DNA of 64,000 nt, from the NCBI GenBank assembly GCA_964612295.1, contig CAZTDY010000001.1, forward strand, positions 48,032-112,031, in the 5' to 3' direction. Positions 1,046 to 54,814 of this stretch are shown piece by piece (position 1 is the stretch's first letter; the number at the start of each line of letters is the position of its first letter). The position numbers and the translations under genes were made by a program. This DNA is from an uncultured bacterium (lineage in GTDB: Bacteria; Eisenbacteria; RBG-16-71-46; CAIMUX01; WJJG01). Under the pieces are notes generated by a model. That model was not told the origin of the DNA, did not search any database, and saw nothing but the letters and a program-made list of their open reading frames with translations.

Positions 1046-1438
1046 GTGGCGCCAGCAGTCTTGATTGGAGAGGAACAGCCCCAACTCAGGCAGCGCTACG
1101 CGGACTATCTGCGCGAGCAAGGCTACGAGGTGTGGGCGGCGGCGGATGCCACTGAGATTCTTTCGATGGCGAAGGCCCACCGGCCCGGCGCGATCGTCTT
1201 GGATCCAGAGATAGACGAAGGGCAAGGACTCAATGCGGTCCTTGCCCTTCTTGCAGCAGGCCTACGAGTGTCGGTCATCTTCAATACGTCGCGTCCTCGG
1301 TCGCTGGAGACCGACTTCTCCAGCTGGGTGGCGGATGCCTACACGGTGCGCTCCCCGGATATTCAACACTGGGGCGAGTCCGTGTTGGAACATCTGGAAA
1401 CGGCTAAGCAGCGCTTGCCAGGATTTTCTCCCGCATGA
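1046..1438 (+). CDS. Small degenerate receiver-domain (CheY-like) protein. The acidic pair is replaced by Glu-Glu (VLIGEEQ).
   Basis: Residues alternate in a beta1-alpha1-beta2 receiver pattern: VLIGEE / LRQRYADYLREQGYEV / IVLDPEID / VSVIFNTS. GTG start. No conserved lysine is recognisable. The 3' end overlaps a convergent ORF. Confidence 0.45.
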   Translation: MAPAVLIGEEQPQLRQRYADYLREQGYEVWAAADATEILSMAKAHRPGAIVLDPEIDEGQGLNAVLALLAAGLRVSVIFNTSRPRSLETDFSSWVADAYTVRSPDIQHWGESVLEHLETAKQRLPGFSPA

Positions 1439-1922
1439 TGAGGTGCCGTTCCAGGCGCCCGAGATCTTCGTCCAGTGTGCGGAAGAAGGATCTCGTGGTG
1501 CGTGGCGCGGTGGAAACAGAACACCCCTTCCGGTCCAAGTACTCCTCGGTATCCTCCAGGTCCTGGAGGATCAGGAGGTCTGCCTCGAGGAGCTTCTCGA
1601 GAACCTCCACGTCGACCTTCTCCGCGTGAAAGAAAGCCGAGAAGCTGTGCGGTGAACAGCGAACCGAATCGACGATGGTCTGCAGATGCAGACGGCGTTG
1701 ATCGAGCTGTTCCATGTGGGCATCCCAGGGCTCGGTCGACCACCGGTCGTGAATCGACTCCAAGGTTCCCAGCAGGTGCATCAACTTGCGATACACTCTC
1801 GTCCGAAGACGGGAATCCTCCTCCTGCCGCTGTTCGCGGTTCTTGTAGCCCTCGTACCCCGGCACTAGGTAGGCCAGGTTCTCGAGGAAGCGGAGGCCAC
1901 TGGAACGGTGCTCGGCGCGCAT
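1404..1922 (-). CDS. Hypothetical protein (172 aa), no recognisable domain
   Basis: Long ORF on the minus strand, convergent with 1046..1438 with about 35 nt of overlap. Its composition is that of a soluble protein. Coding status is uncertain. Confidence 0.35.
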   Translation of the reverse strand: MRAEHRSSGLRFLENLAYLVPGYEGYKNREQRQEEDSRLRTRVYRKLMHLLGTLESIHDRWSTEPWDAHMEQLDQRRLHLQTIVDSVRCSPHSFSAFFHAEKVDVEVLEKLLEADLLILQDLEDTEEYLDRKGCSVSTAPRTTRSFFRTLDEDLGRLERHLIMREKILASAA

Positions 1923-2389
1923 ACTTCTCCTCCGATAGGGGGCCGGAGTCGATTCGAATGCCGAACGCGCTGCCTAGCGGTTGTCGCTTCTGTGCAGGGC
2001 AACCGCGGATGCAGCGGTTCGGTTCGTCTCATTGAGCCTGTCGGCTCACTCTGCCTCGGTTCGGGTCTGTCACTGGCGGCGGACATCTCCGCGCGCCCGT
2101 CGTGTCGCTCCCCTTGGCTCCCATCGTCTGCCTCAGCATCCCGCAGGCCCCCGCGGACCACATCCGGAGTGGTCCCCCGGACGCGCTCGGTGTGATCTCC
2201 CAGGTCACCCGAGCGAGGGGCAGTTGTGCAAGCTTCGTTCCCCGAGCTGCTTGACCCACTGCAAGTGACTATCTAGCATGAGGAAAGAGGTCCCGGTCGG
2301 ACGGAGAGGGGGAGAGACGATTGGGTGCAATCCGCCCCGCTTGTGGCAGAATGCAAGAGGTCCGTCCACGGTAGGCCAGGATCGGAGGA

Positions 2390-3769
2390 ATGACCTTGCC
2401 GGCCCCTGTCGACCAAACGCAGGTGCCCCATTGGGGTGCCCACCCCGCGGTGCTGCTCGTGGCGCACGAGGGTCACCCGGCCGCGCGTTGGGATGAGGCC
2501 CTGCGGGACGCCGGCTACGCGGTCACCGCCGTCGCCAGTCGGGAGGCGGCCATGGAGGCCCTGGATCGGGTGACCGTGGATGTGGTGATCACCGAGCTGC
2601 GCACCGCCCGCATCCAAGGCCTGGGGATCATTGCCGTCGCCCGGCGACGCAATCCGGATGTGGGCGCCGTTCTTCTGATCGAGCCCGATCAGGAAGAGCG
2701 GGCGGTCAAGGCGCTCTCGCGAACCGTCATCGACTATCAGTCCGCTCCTTTCCGTCTCCCAAAACTGCTCGCCATCATCGCGCGGATTGAGGAACGACAG
2801 GCTCTCTGTGGCAAAGTCGCGCGGCTTACCCAACAGCTCGACCGCCGTTTCAGCTTTCCGAACTTGATCGGACAATCGACCGCGGCGGCGCGGATGCGAT
2901 CCTGGCTCAAGGAGGTGTCGCCTACCGACCTGCACGTTCTGCTGATCGGTGAGGAAGGGTCCGGGAAGCGCCTGATTGCAGGGATGCTCCACCACAACAG
3001 CCCACGCCGCAATGAAGCGCTGGTCGAACTCGACTGCGCGGCGCTACCACCCCGCCAGCTGCAACGGGAGCTTTTCGGTCCGCCGGTCCGCGCCCGAAAC
3101 CCGCGGAGGCCGGGGCGCCTGGAGAAGGCGGCCCAGGGGACGCTTCTCCTGCGGGGGGCAACCTCGCTGCCGATCGAACTGCAGGCGCGTGTCGCGGAGG
3201 TTCTCCGCACGGGAGTGCTGAGGCCCGTCTTCGGAGCGGGAGCGATCGAGATTCACCCCCGGCTTGTCCTGGCCGCCGAGGAGGATCCGCGAGGCCTGGT
3301 CGAAGACGGGCGTTTCGACCCGAGCCTCCTCGATCTGGTGGGGGAGAGCGTGCACGACCTGCTGCCGCTTCGGCACCGCCGGAGGGACATCCTGGATCTG
3401 GCGGACCACTTTCTGGCCGAGGAATCGAAGCATCTGGATACGCCTCTTCGCCTGCATCGCGCCACCCGGGATGCGCTCCTCTCCTATGACTGGCCGGGCA
3501 ATACACGCGAACTCCGCCAGGTGATTCGCGAGACGGCCAGGACCAAGCCGGGGGGAGGAGAGGTCGCCGCCGAAGACCTGCCGGAGGATATCCGCGAGCA
3601 CGGGGGGGGTGAGCGCCGGCGGCTGCCCGTGGGGACGCCGCTGGCTGAGATCGAGCGGCGGATGATCCAGGAGACACTGCGCCTGTGCGAGGGAAACCGG
3701 GAGAAGGCCGCCGCCATTTTGGGCATCGGCGTGCGGACTCTGTACCGTAAAATCAAGTCATTTAGGTAG
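2390..3769 (+). CDS. Sigma-54 enhancer-binding-protein-like regulator (NtrC/Fis family architecture) with degenerate receiver and degenerate AAA+ motifs
   Basis: The N-terminal receiver-like domain reads VLLVAHEG...DVVITELR. The central sigma54-interaction domain has LLIGEEGSGKR, ELFG and GNTRELRQVIRE. The C-terminus carries a Fis-type HTH (REKAAAILGIGVRTLYRKIKSF). GAFTGA and the Walker B DE pair are not recognisable. Confidence 0.8.
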   Translation: MTLPAPVDQTQVPHWGAHPAVLLVAHEGHPAARWDEALRDAGYAVTAVASREAAMEALDRVTVDVVITELRTARIQGLGIIAVARRRNPDVGAVLLIEPDQEERAVKALSRTVIDYQSAPFRLPKLLAIIARIEERQALCGKVARLTQQLDRRFSFPNLIGQSTAAARMRSWLKEVSPTDLHVLLIGEEGSGKRLIAGMLHHNSPRRNEALVELDCAALPPRQLQRELFGPPVRARNPRRPGRLEKAAQGTLLLRGATSLPIELQARVAEVLRTGVLRPVFGAGAIEIHPRLVLAAEEDPRGLVEDGRFDPSLLDLVGESVHDLLPLRHRRRDILDLADHFLAEESKHLDTPLRLHRATRDALLSYDWPGNTRELRQVIRETARTKPGGGEVAAEDLPEDIREHGGGERRRLPVGTPLAEIERRMIQETLRLCEGNREKAAAILGIGVRTLYRKIKSFR

Positions 3770-3856
3770 TTATGGCATAGGCCGATCCTCTGGTGCCCCT
3801 TCCGAGTGGGCGGACGCGCAATTGTGTGTCCCCCAACCCAGCTCCCCCTGCCTGCA

Positions 3857-3862
3857 TATAAT
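3857..3862 (+). promoter_or_regulatory. Perfect TATAAT -10-like hexamer in the 285-bp leader upstream of the TonB-dependent receptor gene
   Basis: gcatataatgag sits in otherwise GC-rich DNA. No good -35 hexamer lies at 17 bp. It is about 195 nt upstream of the receptor start. Confidence 0.2.
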
Positions 3863-4054
3863 GAGATCTTCCCCATCTGTTGCTCATGCCAGCGCATCCC
3901 CTTACCGATCACAAATATGCAGACCGCCAACGTGCATTTGCCGACGCAGACCGGGACTTGGGACGCGGCAGATTACCGCCGCCCGATCGGCGAAGACCGC
4001 CTTCTTGGCCCACTCACGTGCGAGGGGCCTGTTCGTGGATAGGGGGAGACCGAC

Positions 4055-6127
4055 ATGCTCGTCCACGCGCTTGTCATGACCAGGGTGCCGGCCACTGTGG
4101 CCGTTGCCATCCTGCTCCTACTTGCCCTCGGCTTGCCGGCTTGGGGGGAAGAGGAGACTGGCTCGGAGCCACGTCTCACCGAGATGAGTCTCGAGGAGCT
4201 GATGTCGATCGAAGTGACCTCGGTCTCGCGTAAGGGTGAGCCGCTTTCGGAGGCCGCGGCGGCGGCGTTCGTTATCACCGCGGATGAGATCCGTCGTTCG
4301 GGCTACACGACGGTCGCAGATCTCCTGCGCTTGGTGCCGGGAATGCTCGTCGGCCAGATCGACGCCAATAAGTGGGCCGTGAGTGCTCGCGGATTCAACG
4401 GACAATTCGCGAACAAGCTCCTTGTCCTGATCGATGGCCGGAGCGTCTATACGCCGCTCTTTGCCGGCGTGTATTGGGATGTCCAGGATCTTATGATCGA
4501 GGACATCGAACGCATCGAGGTGATTCGCGGGCCCGGCGCCACCCTCTGGGGGGCGAACGCGGTCAACGGCGTGATCAACATCATCACCTGCGACGCGGCC
4601 GACAGCGAGGGACTCCTGGTCAGCGGAGGGGGCGGGAATGTGGAGCGGGGTTTCGGGGCGGTCTGATTCGGGCACCGGCTGAATGATCGCGCTTCTGTCC
4701 GCGTCTACGGCAAGTACTTCGATCGGGCTGGATCGGTGGATTCGCTGGGAGAGACGCAGTCCGACGAGTGGACGTCGGGACGGGGCGGGTTCCGCCTCGA
4801 CTGGGGGGTGGGTTCTCGCGACCATGTCACCGTTCAGGGCGATGCCTACCAGGGCGATATGGGGGTGGTCTACCCCTTCCCGAGCAGCCAGCCGCCCTAC
4901 CAGGTGCAGATCGAGGATGTGACCGAAGTGGCGGGCGGCAATCTCCTCACGCGTTGGTCGCGCAACCTGTCGCCGACCGCCGCCTGGGGGGTTCAGCTCT
5001 ATTTCGATCGCACCGAGCGCTCCGACGTCTTCTTCACCGAGAATCGCAGCACGGTGGATGCGGACTTCCAGCACAGCTTCTCGGTGCGGGGCAACACGCA
5101 TCTGGTCTGGGGTGCCGGGTACCGCCGCGGTGAATGGGATTTCCTGGGCACGGAATACGCGGCCACAAAGGAAGGACTGGAAAAAGGTGATGAGGGTCTC
5201 CTGAGCGGATTCGTTCAGGGAAACTGGTCGACGGCGCAGGACAGATTACGCCTGACGTTGGGCTGCAAGGTCGAACACAAAACGAACCAGGCGGGGCTGG
5301 ACCAGGATCTGACCGAGATCCAGCCGAACGGCCGGCTCCTTTGGCTGCCCAACGATCATCACGCGCTGTGGGCCTCCGTTGCCCGAGCGGTACGAACGCC
5401 CACTCAGGTGGAGATGGCCGGCAATGTCTGGCTCGGATACGTGCCCCCCGGCGTGCCGGAGAACCCCGGCCAGGTTCCTCTGATGATCACCCTGGTTGGA
5501 TCGGAGGATTACGTCAGCGAAGAACTCCTGGCCTACGAGTGTGGATATCGCTGCCAACCTCGGGATGGCCTGACCTTCGACTTCGCGGCATTCTACAACG
5601 ACTACACAAACCTCCGGGGCATGATCCAGGGTGAGGCGGAGGTGCGGATGGATCCGCAGCCGCACGCCTTTGTGCCGATCATCCTGTCGAACGCGCAGGA
5701 GGGCGAAGCCTACGGGGCCGAGCTGGCCGCCGGCTGGCAGATGCTGGAAAACCTGCGTCTGCGGGCAAGCTACTCCTACTGGGATCTGAATCTGAAGAAC
5801 GAATTGCAGGACCTGTATGACATGGGCTTCAGCGAGGACAGCACCTGGCCGCCCCATCAGGTCTTGCTGCGGGTTTCCGCAGATCTCGCCCGGAATCTCG
5901 ACCTCGATCTCGTCGGCCGTTTCGTGGACGAATTGGGCGACTTCAGGATCGAGGCGTACACGGAGCTCGATGCGCGCCTGGCCTGGCGCCCCGCGAGCGG
6001 GCTGGAGCTTGCCGTCACCGGGCGCAATCTCCTGCAAGAACAACACCCGGAGCACATCTCCGAGTTAAGCGAGGTCGGGACCGAACTGGAACGTGGAGTC
6101 TATGTTTCGGCGAGCTGGAAACACTAG
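4055..6127 (+). pseudogene. TonB-dependent outer-membrane receptor (plug plus 22-strand barrel) interrupted by a single in-frame TGA at 4664..4666
   Basis: ORF 4055..4666 encodes a signal peptide, a TonB-box-like region and the plug domain (DGRSVYTPLFAGVYWDVQDLMIEDIERIEVIRGPGATLWGANAVNGVINI). The same frame continues straight after TGA with FGHRLNDRASVRVYGKYFDRAG and then the barrel to 6127. Other genes in the window use TGA as an ordinary stop. Confidence 0.8.
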
Positions 6128-6698
6128 CCGCGCCAGAAACCTGGCGATTCGCTTCTTGATCGCACTCGCCATCGCAGGCGGTGTGAGCGGGGGTGAAGTT
6201 TGCCATGCGGGCAAGAGCTCCGTGGAGGAGGTCAAGGCGGCCTTCCTCTACAACTTCGCTCGTTTCATCGAATGGCCGGACGCGGTGTTCAACGCCCCCC
6301 AAAGTCCTTTTGTCATCGGCGTTCTGGGCGAAGATCCATTCGGCGGCGCCCTGGGCGAGATCGTCGGTCACGAGAAGGTGGGGGGGCGGCGGATAGAGAT
6401 TCGGCGCTGGGGGCAGGCTCACGAGGTGGCCGGCTGCCATCTGCTCTTTGTGAACCCCGATCTTCCCGATCGGCTGACCGTGTTGCGGAGCCTGCCGGCG
6501 GAGGGTCTGCTGACCGTGGGCGACGGCGAGGGGTTTGTGGAGAGCGGCGGAATCATCGGTCTGATCGTCGAACAGAATCGTGTGCGTTTCGAGGTGAATC
6601 TGGCCGGTGCTGAGAGAGCTGGCCTGGTCTTGAGCTCGAAGCTGCTGAACTTGGCCCGGGAGGTGGGGCACTGGCCCGTAGAAGGGGATCTGAGGTGA
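6102..6698 (+). CDS. DUF4154 (YfiR-like) periplasmic protein
   Basis: Signal peptide [27 protein letters not shown] followed by the [15 protein letters not shown] motif I associate with DUF4154/YfiR. It overlaps the receptor 3' end by 26 nt and has a GTGA overlap with the downstream kinase. Confidence 0.7.
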
Positions 6699-9151
6699 TC
6701 CGGTCATTTCTCGATCTAAGCATCCGGCGCAAGCTGACCCTGATCATCATGCTGACCAGCGTGAGTGCGCTGATCGTATTGGCGACGGCTTTCATGTCCT
6801 TTGAAAAGGTCCATCTCCAGAACGAGGCGATCAGAGCCTTGGGACTACAGGCTGATTTGGTGGGCGCCAACAGCGCGGCTGCGATTCTCTTCGACGACTT
6901 CACCTCGGCCACCGAGACGCTGTCGGCCTTGCGCGCCGATTCCCACATCGCCACGGCCTGCATCTACCGTCCGGACGGGACCATCTTCGCGACCTACTAC
7001 CCTCCCGGGATGAAGGGGGGCCGGATCCCTCCCGAGCCGGCGCCGGAGGGTTTCGAGGTCACGCCGGGCTCTCTCCACCTGTTCAGAGAAATCCGGTTCC
7101 GTGGTGAGTACGTCGGCACGCTCTACCTCTGCTCGGATCTCGAGGGCATGGCGGCCCACTTGGGACAATACACCAGGATCGCGATCACCCTCGTGGTGGC
7201 AGCGACCCTCTTGGCCCTGCTCATGTCCTTCTGGCTGCAGCGTCTTATCTCGCGGCCCATTCTGAAACTCACCGAGACGGCCACCACCGTGGCCCGGAAT
7301 CGGGACTACTCGATTCGCGCGGTCGGACATGGTGATAATGAGATCGGGAAACTCATCAACCACTTCAATGCCATGCTTGTTCAGATTCAGAAACGTGATC
7401 GCGAACTGCAGCAACATCGTGACCACCTCGAAGAGGAGGTTGGCAAACGAACCGAGGAACTCTCCCGGGCCAATGCAGAGCTGATCCAGGCCAAGGAGCG
7501 CGCCGAGGCGGCCGCGGAGGCCAAGAGCCAGTTCCTCGCCAACATGAGCCACGAGATCCGCACCCCGATGAACGGCGTGATCGGGATGACCGATCTGACC
7601 CTGGATACGGAGCTGACCGCTGAACAACGAGAGTATCTGACGCTCGCCCAGACGTCGGCGGAATCGCTGCTGCAGATCATCAATGACATTTTGGATCTCT
7701 CGAAGATCGAAGCGGGGCGGATGCGGCTCGAGCACGAGGACTTCGACCTCTGGGAGTGCCTCGAGGACACCCTCAAGTCGCTCGCGGTTCGCACGAGGGA
7801 GAAAGACCTGGAACTGGTGTGCAACATCAGCCCGCGCGTTCCGCGGCGCGTGATGGGAGACCATGGCCGCCTGCGTCAGATCGTGGTCAACCTGGTCGGC
7901 AATGCCGTCAAGTTCACGGATGAGGGCGAGATCGTCCTGAAGGTCGAACCGATTGAAATCGCGACCGACAAATGTTTCCTCACCTTCGCTGTCGAGGACA
8001 CGGGGATCGGCATCCCTGAAGACAAGCTCGCCCAGATCTTCGAGAACTTCACCCAGGCGGATGGTTCCATCACCCGCCAGTATGGCGGCACCGGGCTCGG
8101 CCTGGGGATTTCGCAGCAGCTCGTCGGGCTCATGGGTGGAACGATCAAAGTGGAGAGCATCGAGGAGAGCGGCAGCACGTTCTCCTTCACGGCGCGACTC
8201 GAACGGCCGCCCGCGATGTCGGACACAGAGGCTGACGGCACCTGCGAACGCACGGTTCTTGCGCCTGCTCATGGGCGGCACGTGCTCATCGCCGACGACT
8301 CTCCCGGGACGAGCCAGGCCCTCCGTCAGCTGTTAGAGGATTGGGGCCTTCAAGTCAGCGTTGCTTCCACACCTGCCCAGGTCGACGAACTCCTCGCCGA
8401 AGCCGGGGAGCACACGGGCATCGACCTCCTGCTCCTCGACGCCCTGCTACCACCGGGCGGGGTCCGGAGCTTCATCAAGGGGCTCGGCGGGCGGGCTGCC
8501 GACGGGGCAGACGGATCTCCGAGGGTTGTCGTGCTCCTGCCGGGTGGTGGCCACCGTTCCGCCGACGTCGCGAACTATCTCGAGGATGGAGCCGGCGAGT
8601 GCATCAGCAAGCCTATCCGCCACAGTGAGCTCTTCGAGGCGGTCAGGAATCTGCTTCTGCCGCGACTCCAGGAGCTCGGACAGAGCGCGGGGTGCGTTGG
8701 GAGCGGGCCTGCGTCGCGTGACCTGGGAGATCGCAAACAGGAAGTCCCCCCACACCAGTCGCTGCGGATCCTGGTCGCGGAGGACAACCCCGTCAATCAA
8801 CGGCTCATTGTCGAACTGCTCCGTCAGCGAGGGCACGATGTGACGGTGGTCGAGAATGGCGCGGATGTGATTGAGGCGACCCAGTCCGAGTCGTTCCAGA
8901 TCGTGCTCATGGATCTCCACATGCCGGAGATGGGCGGCATCGAGGCCACCATGGCCATCCGCGCCGAGGAGCAACGGGTGGGCGGGCACCTCCTGATCGT
9001 GGCGCTCACCGCCGATGCCGTGGTGGGTGTGCGCGAGGAGTGTTTCGCCGCCGGCATGGACGACTACCTCGACAAACCAATCAAGCCGCAGCAGCTCTTC
9101 GATGTGTTGGCCCGGTTCTTCCCCGCCCGAGAGGATGATCAGGCCGCCTAG
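6695..9151 (+). CDS. Hybrid sensor histidine kinase / response regulator: periplasmic sensor domain between two TM helices, HAMP, HisKA, HATPase_c and two receiver domains
   Basis: H-box [18 protein letters not shown]-box [12 protein letters not shown], and G-boxes DTGIGI and GGTGLGLGI. The two receivers read HVLIADDSP...LLLLDALLP...ISKP and [11 protein letters not shown]...[13 protein letters not shown]...YLDKP. Confidence 0.9.
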
Positions 9152-9411
9152 ATCGCCGTCCTCTTCCCGACGATGACCCGCGACTGCCAAAATGGCAGCC
9201 CTGCAATCACGCCCCGTGTTCTGACTGGTCCAGATCCGCAATCGGCTGTGCCCAAACCCCCGCATGTCGCAGAATATCACGCTCGTTTGTTCCAAAACGA
9301 AACATCCAAAGCGCCAGAGTGGCATCATTCAGGCGATTCATCTGGGGGTTGCACTGAGGGATTCGCATCTAACTTTTGGACTTATATCTATTTACATTTC
9401 TCGTGTCACTT

Positions 9412-9427
9412 TGGCATGATTCTGGCA
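9412..9427 (+). promoter_or_regulatory. Sigma-54-like -24/-12 element (TGGCATGATTCTGGCA) in an AT-rich island upstream of groES
   Basis: GG and GC dinucleotides have the canonical 10-bp spacing, with two mismatches to TGGCAC-N5-TTGCW. It sits in AT-rich sequence (cttatatctatttacatttctc) about 170 nt upstream of groES. A CTTGAA hexamer at 9428..9433 could alternatively be a sigma32-type -35. Confidence 0.2.
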
Positions 9428-9597
9428 CTTGAATGGGGCATGGAAGGCCATCGGCCTGTCTCGAAATGGGAGGTAGGGAGACACTCACAGGGTGGCTCCT
9501 GCGGGAGCTGCCAACAGCTCACAGGAGCAATCAGAACAGCGGATCAGGGGTTCGGCCAGAGCCGCAACCCGAGGATCCAGCGTAAGGAGGAAGGGTG

Positions 9598-11578
<1,981 letters not shown>

Positions 11579-16732: not shown

Positions 16733-17897
16733 TTGGCCTCCCGGATCGCCTGCGCCTCTGCAGATCCGCGCCTGGTGCGACCGGCTTCGGGGCTTCGCCG
16801 ACCTTGACGACCTCCACTCCTCGGACTTCTGGCGGGCGGAGTCGGCCTCGATTGAAGATCTGCTGGCCACCCCCCATGTCGGCCGGCGATCCTCTGCGGG
16901 CACCGGCGTCGGGCCGCGCGCGCGCATCGTTCACTGGAACATCCTGAAGGGAATCGCCTATGAGGGGCTCCGCGACGCCCTCTTGACCCACCCCGCGCTG
17001 AGAGATACGGATGTCCTCCTGCTCAATGAGGTCGATGTGGGGATGGCCCGTTCGGGCAACCGCCACGTCGCCGCTGCGCTGGGACGCGACCTGGATCGGG
17101 ACTGGGTCTACCAGCCGAACTACCTCGAACTGACGAAGGGGCCCGCCGGCGATGCCCTCGCTCCCGGCCAGAACGAGACCGGCTTACACGGCGTGGCGAT
17201 CCTGACGCGCGCGGCTCCCCTGGCCTGGGCACCGATTGAGCTGCCCGAGTGCTTTCAGATGTTTTCCTTTCACGAGAAGCGCCTTGGCCGGCGGACCGGG
17301 CTGGTCCTGTCCCTTCCGGGGGGGCTGGTCGTGGGCACTGCTCACCATGAGGTGCGCGGGATGCCCCGGTGTCGGGCCGAACAGACCAGGGCTTTCCTCG
17401 CCGGCGTCCAATCTTTCTGCGAGGATGAAACCCGCGCCGGCCGGCCGCCCGAGCGGGTAATCCTCTCCGGAGACCTCAACACCCACACCTTCCTGCGGGG
17501 CGACCTGCAGAGTGCAATCCGCGGGGCCCTGAGGCTCCTCTTCACGCCGCAGGGTGCCTTGCGCCGCCAATTCCTCTCTCCCTGGCTCAGGAATCGGGAA
17601 CCCCTCTTCTCCGTGCTACGTGAGGCCGGGTATCGTTGGCAGGAGTACAACCGCGACCAGCACACCGCGCACGCGCCCCTGCCGGTGATCGAGGAGGGCG
17701 ATCGACTCCCTCGAGCGCTCCACCGCCTGCTCTCGGCGCTCTTGCCCTTTCAGGAGCGGGGCATTCCTCTGCATCTGGACTGGTTTTTTGGCCGGGGGCT
17801 GCCCGATGTGGGCGTGAAAGCTCAGACGATCGATGAACTCGCCGGCGACGGAAGACCGTCGGATCATGCGCCGATCCTGCTGGATCTGCCGGGCTAA
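16725..17897 (+). CDS. Endonuclease/exonuclease/phosphatase (EEP) family protein
   Basis: IVHWNILKG, LLLNEVD, GDLNTH and SDHAPILLDL. The GTG start overlaps the hflX stop. There is a long N-terminal extension before the catalytic core. Confidence 0.75.
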   Translation: MADWPPGSPAPLQIRAWCDRLRGFADLDDLHSSDFWRAESASIEDLLATPHVGRRSSAGTGVGPRARIVHWNILKGIAYEGLRDALLTHPALRDTDVLLLNEVDVGMARSGNRHVAAALGRDLDRDWVYQPNYLELTKGPAGDALAPGQNETGLHGVAILTRAAPLAWAPIELPECFQMFSFHEKRLGRRTGLVLSLPGGLVVGTAHHEVRGMPRCRAEQTRAFLAGVQSFCEDETRAGRPPERVILSGDLNTHTFLRGDLQSAIRGALRLLFTPQGALRRQFLSPWLRNREPLFSVLREAGYRWQEYNRDQHTAHAPLPVIEEGDRLPRALHRLLSALLPFQERGIPLHLDWFFGRGLPDVGVKAQTIDELAGDGRPSDHAPILLDLPG

Positions 17898-19447
17898 GAG
17901 ACCTGCTCGGCCGTCTCGAACATGATGCGGTTCTCTTTGAGGAACGGGATCATCCGCGAGAGGGCCTCGACCACGTCGGCATCGAGCTGGGCGCCGCTCA
18001 CCCGCCGGATTTCCGCGAAGGCTTCATCCTCGGTCCAGGCCAGGCGGTAGGGGCGATCCGAGGTGAGCGCATCGAATGTGTCGGCCACGGCGATGATCCG
18101 GGCCGCCATGGGAATCGCCTCTTTCGTGATTCCCATCGGATAGCCGCGGCCGTCGATCCGCTCGTGATGGAACAGGACGACCTGGCTGGCCTCCTTCAGC
18201 TGATCGATGTGGCTCAGGACCTCGTATCCCCGCCAGGGATGTTGTTTGACGATCTCGAACTCCTCGGGGCTCAAAGGACCCCGTTTGTTCAAGATCGACT
18301 CGGGCATCCCGATCTTGCCGACGTCGTGAAGGATGCTTGCCCACCGCAGGTCTTCCAATCCCGAGACCGACAGCCCCAAGTCGCGGCCGAGCAGCATCGA
18401 GAGCAGATTGACGCGTGCCGAATGCCCCGATGTGTACGGGTCCTTGGCTTCGATCGCGCTCACCAGCGCCTTGACGGTGGACATCAGGAAGTTGCCCACG
18501 TTCTCCTGCAGGTCCGCGCTCCGCAAGGCCATGCTGGTCTGCTCGGCCAGGGCCCGCGTCAGGCGGAGATCCGGGGCGCCGTAGGGGGCTCGCCCGGCCC
18601 GCAGGAGGGCGATGAATCCCGCCTTCGGCCGATCGGCATCGATCGGGCACAAGGCGACCTGGACGGGTGCCGGAAACGGGCTCGGCTGGCCGAGGACCTG
18701 GGATAGATCTCCGTGGATCTGCCCGGTCGACCAGCTGCCCATGCTGTACCAAAGCTGGGCCGCCAGGTCGCGCGAGTCGCGCTCGCCCAGCTGCAGGCGC
18801 GGGGGATCGACGTAGGGGTTTGCGCACAGGACCGGCTGCCGGAACCCGGGGATCTGCAGCAGGGCCAGATCGGCGCCCACCGGCGCACACCCCTGCTGGA
18901 GGATGAACTCGATCGCCTGCGGATCCGTATCGGGAGCTCTCATCCGGGCCGAAATCCGTCGCAACATGCCAAGCTCGGCCTGCAGGCTGATGAGCTCATC
19001 CTGAAGGCCACAGTTGCGCTTGGCCAGGGCCAGGTGCGAACCCAAAGCCAGGGCCAGGGTGCGCAGCATCCGCTCGGCCTGTTCCCGCCCCTGCCGCGGC
19101 GACTTGCGCGACAGCGCCGTGAGGACCCCGGGGGCCGATCCCGCGGTGGAGGGGACCGGCACGGCCAGGAGGAGGCGGCCATCCGGGAGGATCTCATGCG
19201 CGGTGCACATCTCGGAGGTGGCCTCCCGAGCGAGCGACTGGATCCGGCGCACCACATCGTCGGCCGGCGTCGAGGGGGTGGCAAAGAGCACTCTCAGATC
19301 CGTCGACCAAAACTGGAGGTGCAGATCGGCCTCCTCCGCGTGGGCCCGGAGCAGGCCCGCGAACCCCGAATCGATGAGTTCGGTTGCTTGACTGGGCTGA
19401 TGCAGACCGAGCATGGGCTGTGACCTCGATTCAGGGTGAGCTTTCAC
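17894..19447 (-). CDS. HD-GYP domain phosphodiesterase (c-di-GMP signalling) with an N-terminal regulatory, GAF-like region
   Basis: HDVGKIGMPESILNK...HHERIDGRGYP in the C-terminal half. Convergent with the EEP gene, with a 4-nt overlap. Confidence 0.85.
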   Translation of the reverse strand: MKAHPESRSQPMLGLHQPSQATELIDSGFAGLLRAHAEEADLHLQFWSTDLRVLFATPSTPADDVVRRIQSLAREATSEMCTAHEILPDGRLLLAVPVPSTAGSAPGVLTALSRKSPRQGREQAERMLRTLALALGSHLALAKRNCGLQDELISLQAELGMLRRISARMRAPDTDPQAIEFILQQGCAPVGADLALLQIPGFRQPVLCANPYVDPPRLQLGERDSRDLAAQLWYSMGSWSTGQIHGDLSQVLGQPSPFPAPVQVALCPIDADRPKAGFIALLRAGRAPYGAPDLRLTRALAEQTSMALRSADLQENVGNFLMSTVKALVSAIEAKDPYTSGHSARVNLLSMLLGRDLGLSVSGLEDLRWASILHDVGKIGMPESILNKRGPLSPEEFEIVKQHPWRGYEVLSHIDQLKEASQVVLFHHERIDGRGYPMGITKEAIPMAARIIAVADTFDALTSDRPYRLAWTEDEAFAEIRRVSGAQLDADVVEALSRMIPFLKENRIMFETAEQVS

Positions 19448-48473: not shown

Positions 48474-48490
48474 TGGCACTCAGAATGCTT
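48474..48490 (+). promoter_or_regulatory. Sigma-54 promoter candidate TGGCACtcagaATGCT upstream of the zinc-ribbon gene
   Basis: Perfect -24 TGGCAC. GC of the -12 element is at the canonical spacing, with one mismatch in -12 (ATGCT versus TTGCW). A TTGACA hexamer lies at 48455..48460. About 110 nt upstream of 48601. Confidence 0.3.
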
Positions 48491-53146: not shown

Positions 53147-54814
53147 ATGGCGGCCAGGGATGAACACCCGGCAGAGGGATTCCGGAACGAGTGGAAGAGG
53201 CGCGACAAGCGACCGATTCAGAACGCCGGCGGTCTTGCCAAACGACGTGATTCTCGCGGTGCGCTTGCCGACCCGAACCACTGGGAATCGCAGAATTCAT
53301 GGGACATCGGAAGCCCGAGCGGGCCTCCCGCCGCGGAGAAGGCCGATGTGGACGTGCGAACCACCCCGGACCAGGAAATCGAAACGGTCGGGGCGCGTCT
53401 CCTGAGGCACTTTCACAGCTGCTGGAGAGCCTTGGTTCTGAGGGGTATGCAGGACTCCACCTTCCGCACGGCGCTGCATGCACTGCGAACGGCGGTGATC
53501 GATCTCGAATCCCAGGATGTGCCCGCGCGCCTCGTCCGGTACGGAAGCGGTGTCGTGGCGGGCGAAGAAACGTTGTCGCCCTATTCGTCCGGGAACCTGC
53601 TGGCGCAGATGGTCGCCGAGGAAATGGATGCGATGGGTCTCAAGGGGATCCGATTCCGGGGACCGTGGGACGATGCCGAGGTCGCACGTTTCCTTCAGCT
53701 CCTCGAAAACTGGCGGCGCGCCGAGGAAGCGACCGACGCCGAGCGCCGCGAAGAGATGGAGGCGATGGGCGTAGGCAGCATCGAGATCCTCACGGGGGAG
53801 GATGAGACGGAGGCTGACGCCGACCTTCCCACGAGCGGGTGGGACGCCGTTGCCGATCTCGGTGAGCTGCGCAAACGGGCCCGGCAGACTTTCTTCGGCG
53901 CCCTCCGCGTGGCCCGGTTCCAGATGAGCAGCCTGAGCGGCCAGAGCAGCCCCGCGCTGCGGCGCACCAGGCAGGTCGTGCACAAGATCATCGACACCCT
54001 CGTCGAGGAGGAATTTTCCCTTCTTGCACTCACCGCCCTGAACGCGTTCGATACCCAGACGTTCCTGCATTCGGTCAACGTCTGCATCCTGGCCACTGCG
54101 CTGGGGCAGCGCCTGGGTCTCAACAAGCGCGAACTCTCCGAACTCGGGGTGGCGGCCTTCTTCCACGATCTGGGCAAGATGAACATGCCCAAGCCGGTCC
54201 TCAACAAGCCGGGCACCTTCAGTCCGGCCGAGTGGGAGATCATGAAGACCCACCCGCTCGAGGGCGTCAGGACCCTTGTGCGGAGCGATCAGTTGAGCTC
54301 CCTCACCATGAAGGTGGCGCTCGTGGGGCTCGAACATCACATGCGCTTCGATCTAACCGGCTATCCGCGGATGGGCGATCAGTGGGACATCGGCGTCCTG
54401 AGCAGGATTGTCTCGATCGCCGATTGCTACGATGCGATGTCATCCCACCGCACCTACGAGACCAACCGCCTGATCCCCCATCGGGTCATGACCCATATGC
54501 TTGGCCGGAGCGGCAAGAACTTCGATCCCGTGCTCATGCGTCTCTTCGTGGGGCTGATGGGGCTCTACCCCGTGGGGAGCCTCGTCGAACTGACCGGCGG
54601 CGAGCAGGCGGTCGTGGTCGCGACCGATCCGGACGACCCGGTGAGACCGGTCGTGCGCCTGACCCGGACAGGTGACGGGGATCCCGTGCCCGGCAGCGAC
54701 TTGCAGCTCGTGAGTCTGACCGACAAGCCCTGGGGCGGGGGAGAGAAACTCCCCATCGTGAGGGCGCTGGACCCCGAGGAGGTCGGCGTGGACCTCTCCG
54801 CCTATCTGCTGTAG
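53147..54814 (+). CDS. HD-GYP domain phosphodiesterase (second paralog in the window)
   Basis: HDLGKMNMPKPVLNKPGTFSPAEWEIMKTHP...HHMRFDLTGYP. Confidence 0.85.
   Translation: MAARDEHPAEGFRNEWKRRDKRPIQNAGGLAKRRDSRGALADPNHWESQNSWDIGSPSGPPAAEKADVDVRTTPDQEIETVGARLLRHFHSCWRALVLRGMQDSTFRTALHALRTAVIDLESQDVPARLVRYGSGVVAGEETLSPYSSGNLLAQMVAEEMDAMGLKGIRFRGPWDDAEVARFLQLLENWRRAEEATDAERREEMEAMGVGSIEILTGEDETEADADLPTSGWDAVADLGELRKRARQTFFGALRVARFQMSSLSGQSSPALRRTRQVVHKIIDTLVEEEFSLLALTALNAFDTQTFLHSVNVCILATALGQRLGLNKRELSELGVAAFFHDLGKMNMPKPVLNKPGTFSPAEWEIMKTHPLEGVRTLVRSDQLSSLTMKVALVGLEHHMRFDLTGYPRMGDQWDIGVLSRIVSIADCYDAMSSHRTYETNRLIPHRVMTHMLGRSGKNFDPVLMRLFVGLMGLYPVGSLVELTGGEQAVVVATDPDDPVRPVVRLTRTGDGDPVPGSDLQLVSLTDKPWGGGEKLPIVRALDPEEVGVDLSAYLL

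Follow-up and report, generated by a model that had tools for sequence, protein, structure and literature searches.

In bacterial enhancer-binding proteins (EBPs), the GAFTGA motif is needed for contact with sigma-54, and the Walker B glutamate for ATP hydrolysis. NtrX, an EBP encoded at the alphaproteobacterial ntr locus, has a kinase partner, NtrY, and a receiver that can be phosphorylated. Like NtrX, the established atypical EBPs TyrR, HupR, PhhR, HsfA and VpsR lack GAFTGA (PMC6158489), as does NtrC of Caulobacter and Rhodobacter (10.1101/2023.06.06.543975). Here we describe an EBP-like protein encoded upstream of the chaperonin genes groES and groEL (groESL) in a 64,000 nt stretch of contig CAZTDY010000001.1, from an uncultured bacterium of the Eisenbacteria; this whole stretch is referred to as the window. 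With an EBP architecture and no functional GAFTGA motif, the protein is built like the atypical EBPs.

Its best structural match is NtrX of Brucella abortus (5m7n/5m7o/5m7p), which has the same order of receiver, AAA+ and helix-turn-helix (HTH) domains and whose loop is likewise three residues shorter at GAFTGA (10.1101/2023.06.06.543975, legend of Fig. S1); repression by NtrX of its own promoter has been reported (PMC6158489). Unlike NtrX, the window protein is also without arginine fingers and Walker B residues and is tied to groESL. VpsR of Vibrio cholerae resembles it in lacking GAFTGA, in having ND at Walker B, in not needing phosphorylation and in working with sigma-70 (PMC6158489), but VpsR is a c-di-GMP-dependent activator of biofilm genes, whereas the operator position at the window locus suggests repression. 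In Rhodobacter capsulatus and Caulobacter crescentus, NtrC lacks the L1 loop with GAFTGA, and its regulation at sigma-70 promoters includes repression (10.1101/2023.06.06.543975). These nitrogen regulators differ in keeping the phospho-acceptor Asp, in needing phosphorylation and in retaining at least ATP binding. HsfA of Myxococcus xanthus, an NtrC-like atypical EBP, directly controls the heat-shock gene lonD (PMC6158489; PMC9109919), but it is phosphorylated by HsfB and activates.

Results

An EBP-like protein without GAFTGA

The NtrC-like architecture proposed in the preliminary description of this DNA is borne out by four Pfam domains, all above their thresholds: Response_reg (34.1 bits), Sigma54_activat (98.9 bits; PF00158 cut-off, 20.2 bits), AAA_lid_14 (66.7 bits) and HTH_8 (53 bits). 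The NCBIfam models placed the protein among NtrC, AtoC and NtrX at about 200 bits each, far under every equivalog cut-off; the NtrX model NF051870 gave 199 bits, short of its cut-off of 600. The N-terminal domain narrowly passed the Pfam VpsR-domain model (26.5 bits; threshold, 23.7 bits). The AlphaFold2 model had a pLDDT of 82, its top Foldseek match was Brucella NtrX (5m7p), and the predicted fold also matched NtrC1, LuxO and FleQ.

The motif register was set by residue alignments to the structures of PspF and Aquifex NtrC-family proteins and by a 48-sequence alignment. PspF ELFGHEAGAFTGAQKRHPG aligned with ELFGPPVRA---RNPRRPG of the EBP-like protein, in which GAFTGA is absent and the loop is three residues shorter. 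The same L1 deletion, again without GAFTGA, was found in all 30 clusters examined of the crown clade, to which the window belongs. The RG pair at the Walker B columns is limited to the window protein and its relative with 84% identity; most of the family has Asp followed by Gly, His, Asp or Asn. Both arginine fingers are gone, the columns of PspF R162 and R168 being occupied by D310 and L316 (FDPSLLDLV opposite FRADLLDRL), and so is the sensor I Asn, replaced by E297 (LAAE opposite CATN). Sensor II (PLRHRRRD) is kept, including its Arg. The receiver fold is retained according to Pfam, and beside the Glu at the phospho-acceptor column it has H26-E27 for the acidic pair, E98 for the conserved Thr and A119 for the Lys. 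Judged from these alignments, the EBP-like protein is without every known sequence determinant for sigma-54 contact, ATP hydrolysis and phosphorylation.

Much of this had been read by eye, in a register that proved essentially right: neither the structure alignments nor the 48-sequence alignment placed an intact GAFTGA, a DE pair or a phospho-acceptor Asp at the canonical columns. The missing GAFTGA, the altered Walker B, the Glu at the phospho-Asp column and the Walker A sequence with its Lys all stand as first described. The acidic pair of the receiver, given as AH, is indeed lost, but its true columns are one residue off. The Glu had also been taken for an activating phosphomimic. This does not hold family-wide in the clade: the phospho-Asp column of the crown clade contains Glu, Gln, Arg, Pro or Val, and most close relatives have one of the last four.

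A conserved gene next to groESL

A database search returned about 34 clusters of the family at 38-84% identity, all without GAFTGA, followed from about 35% identity by canonical EBPs of Planctomycetes. None of about 140 loci of these next-best homologues had groES or groEL within 7-8 kb. Genome and metagenome scans located the family in metagenome-assembled genomes (MAGs) of Candidatus Eisenbacteria. The family is Eisenbacteria-specific, and its gene is nearly always just upstream of groES-groEL. The order POR, small receiver, orf172 (on the opposite strand), EBP-like gene, groES and groEL was found in all crown-clade loci recovered, and groES directly follows the EBP-like gene in most related loci.

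The reading frame is intact and full-length in at least 30 clusters at 42-84% identity, with family-specific invariant residues, and the HTH is conserved within the family. Ratios of nonsynonymous to synonymous substitution rates (dN/dS), computed against L168, the relative with 84% identity, were 0.15 for the EBP-like gene, 0.16 for the small receiver gene and 0.047 for orf172. The AAA+ core, at 0.088, is the most constrained part of the EBP-like protein. This purifying selection excludes non-function of the gene. The loss of many catalytic residues, and a Walker B that is most degraded in the lineage of the window itself, might suggest a functionless, decaying relic beside DNA motifs that belong to unrelated regulators; given also the intact frames and the conservation of the gene's own promoter, we give this idea hardly any credence.

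Several records lie at the margin of the family. L011 (JAJRCS010000240.1) is a family member on a 2.7 kb contig binned as 'Methanomicrobiales archaeon', probably a binning error. L086, L087 and L170 (P0032, P0034) form a third branch of degenerate proteins encoded beside a tatA-like gene and not adjoining groESL, and the sequence covered there contains no TGCCA-N3-TGGCA site.

Palindromic sites and a -24/-12 element upstream of groES

Palindromes of the type TGCCA-N3-TGGCA, here called B sites, are located upstream of groES in every crown-clade locus, and most loci have three. All 18 perfect copies in 17 loci fall within 460 nt upstream of groES, with none in the other 260 kb; when one mismatch is allowed, 43 of 47 copies fall there and 4 elsewhere. 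In the window, three of the four B-type sites lie inside 232 bp, against 1.64 sites expected over the whole 64 kb. The B sites remain next to groES in spite of the insertions in the window, L005, L007 and L089, and they accompany the gene family across a deep divergence (crown clade, L084 and L169).

The proximal site, B3, overlaps TGGCAYG-N4-TSGCA, a GG-N10-GC element which matches 8-11 of the 12 positions of the sigma-54 consensus and is found, without change of place, in 15 of 16 crown-clade loci. The sigma-54-like site first noted at this place is thus confirmed as positionally conserved. Sigma-70-like matches near groES in this clade are weak (7-9 of 12 positions), and their position shifts between loci. 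In L005 and L089, B3 and the -24/-12 element have been moved apart by a 10 nt duplication and neither is lost, which argues for two separate elements, each under selection. Ahead of the invariant GC, the base is G, C or A, whereas the palindrome half-site has GG; this argues against another half-site at that place.

Just upstream of B2, the palindrome-like sequences A1 and A2 are separated by 23 bp and have the 7-3-7 geometry of NtrC sites; they could be the upstream activating sequence (UAS) of a true activator. The groES leader is long (about 160-190 nt; 9436..9594 in the window) with predicted hairpins, and could be a structured leader; two-sided changes keep the pairing in 9 of 35 pairs, a count drawn from only five close relatives. 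CIRCE gave no match at up to three mismatches anywhere in the window, and control of groES by CIRCE/HrcA was therefore rejected; scans of the window for Rfam families and tRNAs returned nothing.

orf172 and its divergent promoter

Divergently from the EBP-like gene runs orf172, whose family is confined to Eisenbacteria (89 clusters), has no Pfam domain and carries the invariant N-terminal motif RFLENLAYLVPGY..R..EDSRLR. Structure prediction gave, with high confidence, a four-helix bundle, and a fold search with this model returned generic helical bundles only, with no informative structural neighbour. A sequence of the form xGGCACG-N4-TTGCA (9-11 of 12 positions) recurs at an unchanged position in 18 of 19 loci, with the deep relatives L084 and L169 among them, and this conservation suggests that orf172 is transcribed from a sigma-54 promoter. 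The adjoining sigma-70-type promoter of the EBP-like gene is preserved almost letter for letter in 14 of the 18 loci examined. Next to so canonical a sigma-70 promoter, the assignment of both flanking promoters to sigma-54 gains credibility. Over the whole window, matches to the sigma-54 consensus show no excess (13 found, 21 expected), so that the evidence for sigma-54 is the conservation between orthologous loci only. An EBP with GAFTGA was not found in the window, and in 396 kb of related loci GAFTGA or GSFTGA occurs only in L084, L169 and the sister clade described below.

A conserved (A/T)ATGCAA element is present in the leader of the EBP-like gene (2346..2357; GGCAGAATGCAA) and at equivalent places; some loci have it in the form TGCAA-N16-TTGCA. 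Lying about 110 bp upstream of the sigma-54-type promoter on the minus strand, the element could be a UAS for orf172 or belong to the leader. In some relatives (L001, 6164..7657; L003, 3644..5509; also L005, L008, L088 and L089), a minus-strand gene for a large secreted Cys-rich protein, which by eye resembles a papain-type cysteine peptidase, sits between orf172 and the EBP-like gene and would share this promoter.

Deep relatives and a sister clade

L084 and L169 are loci of named Eisenbacteria MAGs in which the place of the small receiver is held by a canonical EBP and a PAS kinase. The canonical EBP has GSFTGA, DE and an intact receiver; it is followed by orf18x, a GAFTGA-less EBP (P0033, P0031) and groES. 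The groES promoter in these loci is of the near-consensus sigma-70 type (TTGACA-17-TAGTAT or TAGCTT), and no -24/-12 element was found there. A B site lies about 16-20 nt downstream of the -10 element, with one mismatch in L084 and perfect in L169, and a perfect B site about 140 bp upstream. By its position, this placement is repressor-type geometry.

The sister clade, headed by P0045, comprises more than 120 clusters whose genes are also just upstream of groESL; one record is named Eisenbacteria, and another member, P0303, is labelled 'Candidatus Limnocylindria', probably through a binning error. The Glu at the phospho-site is invariant in this clade and for that reason appears to be the ancestral state. 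Several members (P0214, P0226, P0228 and P0279) keep GAFTGA, the Walker B DE, the arginine fingers and the sensor I Asn, and others have deletions, insertions or substitutions in L1. In a neighbour-joining tree, the sister clade and clade 1 (the crown clade with its deep relatives) were each monophyletic, and jointly so with respect to canonical EBPs, with 100 of 100 bootstraps each; intact and degenerate proteins were interleaved within the sister clade. Given the intact members, their interleaving with degenerate ones and the universal Glu at the phospho-site, the ancestor was probably an active, phosphorylation-independent EBP that served as a sigma-54 activator of groESL, and its contact loop was probably lost repeatedly.

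In the sister clade, a pair of B-like sites spaced 42 bp apart precedes groES. In three loci with an intact EBP, a GG-N10-GC element lies 110-160 bp beyond these sites (CGGCACGACCATTGCG, TGGAACAGCGGTTGCC and TGGAATACGGATTGCT), and in both of the loci with a degenerate EBP the GC of the -12 element is lost at the homologous place. This comparison of three loci with two suggests that the B sites were the UAS of the activator and that promoter and motor decay together. A B site over the -24/-12 element was seen in no sister-clade locus compared; in clade 1, whose EBPs are all dead, it lies over the -24 element (crown clade) or just after the sigma-70 -10 element (deep relatives). The second B-like site of the sister clade follows, by about 18 nt, a weak and inconsistently conserved sigma-70-like -10 element, both in a locus with an intact EBP (L172) and in one with a degenerate EBP (L085).

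The small receiver

The preliminary description had paired the EBP-like protein with a second pseudo-receiver, the product of the small gene at the end of the POR operon. Its Response_reg match covers positions 1-79 of the 111 in the model. Among 15 orthologues, E9-E10 in place of the DD pair, the phospho-acceptor D53, T81 and R102 in place of the Lys are all invariant, and the synteny is conserved in the crown clade. The EE pair was therefore read correctly, but the label 'pseudo' is not established, since the protein keeps the Asp and the Thr; on its sequence it is a separate, conserved atypical receiver. A functional pairing with the EBP-like protein found nothing in its favour beyond synteny, and in deeper relatives other genes fill its place. 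The two receivers have weak similarity (E = 0.013 over 31 residues). A candidate origin as a truncated remnant of the canonical EBP of L084 was rejected, as BLASTP gave no significant similarity (E = 0.25).

Insertion block and other genes of the window

In the window and L168, the EBP-like gene and groES are separated by genes for a TonB-dependent receptor, a YfiR-like DUF4154 protein and a hybrid kinase with CHASE8, HAMP, histidine kinase and two receiver domains. Other insertions occupy the same spot in L005, L007 and L089, the last of which also has a related kinase; DNA has entered repeatedly between the EBP-like gene and the control region of groES. As a possible partner of the regulator, the block was rejected, being lineage-specific and absent from most related loci. 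The pairing of the YfiR-like protein with the CHASE8 kinase resembles YfiR-YfiN, with a kinase output replacing the diguanylate cyclase. The gene for the TonB-dependent receptor (4055..6127) is split by an in-frame TGA at 4664..4666 (GAV*FGH), which is common to three separate assemblies of the organism; L168 has AGA (Arg) there and a single gene of 690 aa. The TGA is either a nonsense mutation, making the gene a pseudogene, or a site of read-through.

Two proteins of the window (17894..19447 and 53147..54814) have Pfam HD_5 and HD domains. HD_5 presumably covers c-di-GMP phosphodiesterases of the HD-GYP type, in which case c-di-GMP signalling may exist in the organism; this bears on the idea of a VpsR- or FleQ-like ligand for the EBP-like protein. 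The second sigma-54-like site of the preliminary description (TGGCACTCAGAATGCT, 48474..48489) has one mismatch to the consensus and is intergenic; it points at a small open reading frame from 48601 and a HAD hydrolase gene, and is divergent from a DUF1015 gene.

Table 1. Positions of the genes, protein motifs and candidate control elements at the groESL locus of the window
Feature	Position	Strand	Evidence or remark
Stand-alone atypical receiver, 130 aa	1046..1438	+	Pfam Response_reg, 38 bits; 59 nt after POR beta/gamma gene
orf172, 172 aa	1404..1922	-	Divergent from EBP-like gene; overlooked in the preliminary description
Sigma-54-type -24/-12 promoter toward orf172, GGGAACGAAGCTTGCA	2227..2242	-	8 bp from -35 of the promoter of the EBP-like gene
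Sigma-70-type promoter of EBP-like gene, TTGACC-17-TAGCAT	2251..2279	+	Consensus scan
EBP-like protein, 459 aa	2390..3769	+	Pfam, NCBIfam and PDB alignments
Degenerate receiver domain	2447-2794		
E69 codon, column of phospho-acceptor Asp	2594..2596	+	Alignments
Sigma-54-type AAA+ core	2864-3328		
Walker A GEEGSGKR, Lys kept	2948..2971	+	Structure and 48-sequence alignments
L1 loop region, ELFGPPVRARNPRRPG	3068..3115	+	No GAFTGA; 3 residues shorter than in canonical EBPs
Walker B strand GTLLLRG	3137..3157	+	RG at DE columns (canonical GTLFLDE)
AAA lid	3371-3610		
Fis-type HTH	3641-3760		
Lineage-specific insertion between EBP-like gene and groES	3770..9151	+	Pfam; absent from most related loci
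B1, perfect palindrome, TGCCAAAATGGCA	9185..9197		Distal candidate operator/UAS
A1 (TGTCGCA-N3-TGCGACA type) and A2 (TGTTCCAAAACGAAACA; TGTTCCA-N3-TGGAACA type)	9265..9304		Conserved, 17 bp, palindrome-like
B2, CGCCAGAGTGGCA	9312..9324		About 128 bp from B1 and 91 bp from B3; both spacings conserved
B3, TGTCACTTTGGCA	9404..9416		Overlaps -24 element of groES promoter
Sigma-54-type -24/-12 element, TGGCATGATTCTGGCA	9412..9427	+	About 170 nt upstream of groES
groES (9595..9897) and groEL (9917..11578)	9595..11578	+	Probable regulated operon

Discussion

We favour, tentatively and with a probability of roughly 0.45, the reading that the EBP-like protein is an ATPase-dead, phosphorylation-independent DNA-binding derivative of an EBP that would act as a repressor or anti-activator of groESL. 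Its ancestor would be a sigma-54 activator specific to groES-groEL in Eisenbacteria, of which DNA binding and probably also nucleotide binding and assembly would be retained. The protein would bind the three B sites upstream of groES in the form of dimers or a higher oligomer, and its AAA+ domain may serve only nucleotide-dependent assembly. Since the protein should be unable to remodel the sigma-54 holoenzyme, occupancy of the sites, including the one over the -24 element, would repress groESL or block its activation. Heat or unfolded protein, possibly sensed through GroEL or orf172, are candidates for the derepressing signal. A repressor role is favoured because a B site lies on the promoter in clade 1, because the deepest dead relatives show the repressor geometry at a sigma-70 promoter, and because the protein cannot activate by the canonical route. 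A role of this kind had been proposed in the preliminary description, and it is partly supported: the motif losses, purifying selection, intact HTH and site geometry are all consistent with it. That description did not include the tie to groES-groEL, the palindrome array, orf172 with its sigma-54-type promoter or the sister clade with intact members.

Several observations weigh against this reading. The link between the protein and the B sites comes from their co-occurrence, and a B site near a sigma-70 promoter is not confined to loci with dead EBPs, as the sister clade illustrates. The -24/-12 element of groES is kept throughout nearly all of the crown clade, unlike in the sister clade, where GAFTGA and the -12 GC disappear together. 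Transcription from a sigma-54 promoter requires an activator; the window yielded no such protein, and an RpoN box was found neither there nor in 396 kb of related loci. B1 and B2 stand at UAS-like distances (about -250 and -120), equally compatible with activation, and the conservation of A1 and A2 is a sign that further factors act at the groES promoter.

The protein might instead be a sigma-70-dependent activator or dual regulator of groESL that recruits or stabilises sigma-70 RNA polymerase from the upstream B sites, perhaps in response to a ligand or nucleotide. All characterised GAFTGA-less EBPs work at sigma-70 promoters, several of them as activators (PMC6158489; 10.1101/2023.06.06.543975), so that NtrC of Rhodobacter and Caulobacter, VpsR, TyrR and HsfA are all precedents, the NtrC-like HsfA as a regulator of a heat-shock gene (PMC9109919). 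The retained Walker A Lys and the passed VpsR-domain threshold point the same way, as do a possible promoter in the window (TTTACA-18-CATGAT, 9391..9420) and the strong sigma-70 promoters of L084 and L169, where a B site lies about 100 bp upstream of the -35 element. However, it is the -24/-12 element that is fixed in position in the crown clade, not the weak and shifting sigma-70-like matches, and one B site is always on or just downstream of the promoter, which is unexpected for an activator. We regard sigma-70-dependent activation as a secondary and rather unlikely option.

The two conserved sigma-54-type promoters that flank the gene, and the UAS-like distances of B1 and B2, also fit a non-catalytic partner which tethers a GAFTGA-bearing EBP to the DNA and, through mixed rings or mutual recruitment, keeps both promoters activated. 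Hetero-oligomers of EBPs have been reported in Myxococcus (cited as reference 23 of PMC9109919). L084 and L169 encode a canonical EBP with a PAS kinase in the cluster, and constraint is strongest on the AAA+ core. Yet in the clade of the window the cluster has no canonical EBP, the two loci that do encode it are without a -24/-12 element at groES, and no partner was identified; moreover, the loss of both arginine fingers would cripple catalysis at mixed interfaces. This arrangement seems improbable to us. Two further propositions, taken jointly, are doubtful, though a shade less so than the tethering partner: that the sister clade records the repeated and independent conversion of activators into non-activators with co-decay of the promoter, and that the sigma-54 promoters of orf172 and groESL would be governed by an EBP without loop or ATPase. 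Such an EBP would be either a 'pseudo-EBP' anti-activator that keeps the sigma-54 holoenzyme poised at the chaperonin operon until a further factor intervenes, or the agent of an unconventional activation, with orf172 or with a DNA-binding-less EBP in trans.

For the favoured reading, repression or anti-activation of groESL, other described systems offer partial parallels. At glnAp1/glnAp2, enteric NtrC uses the same sites to repress an overlapping sigma-70 promoter and to activate the downstream sigma-54 promoter. The analogy suggests how the loss of its motor could turn an activator into a pure repressor, and the B-like sites of the sister clade do flank a weak sigma-70-like promoter; since that promoter is not consistently good, we take the parallel as a lead rather than a result. 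As in PspF/PspA, the sigma-70 promoter of the EBP gene stands back to back with the sigma-54 promoter of a small, all-helical protein, but PspF is an active ATPase with GAFTGA, and neither Pfam nor the fold search relates orf172 to PspA/IM30. In its proposed function, the EBP-like protein resembles HrcA/CIRCE, in which a repressor devoted to groESL acts through an inverted repeat at the promoter. HrcA belongs to an unrelated protein family and its CIRCE operator is missing from the window, and the EBP-like protein would be a functional analogue on an EBP scaffold.

In the literature, we found nothing specific on an EBP-type regulator of groESL or on sigma-54 in Eisenbacteria. The present case differs from those described in four ways: phospho-acceptor, loop, arginine fingers and Walker B are lost together, the gene is strictly tied to groESL and to a specific operator array, sigma-54-type promoters flank it, and an evolutionary series is visible. 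GAFTGA-less EBPs have so far been scattered cases, and here a whole lineage shows the transition stepwise, from intact, groESL-linked activators with Glu at the phospho-site, through loss of GAFTGA together with the -12 GC, to a clade with a dead motor that still keeps the binding sites, the promoter-overlapping site and the -24/-12 element. The series poses the question of what opens sigma-54 promoters whose neighbouring EBP cannot. Sigma-54-type promoters at groES, groEL and dnaK are reported to be enriched in Bacteroidota and Planctomycetota (PMC12316311), and the present locus extends this tendency of chaperone genes to be under sigma-54. It points to a previously undescribed way of controlling chaperonin genes, in an uncultured phylum with no CIRCE seen at groES.

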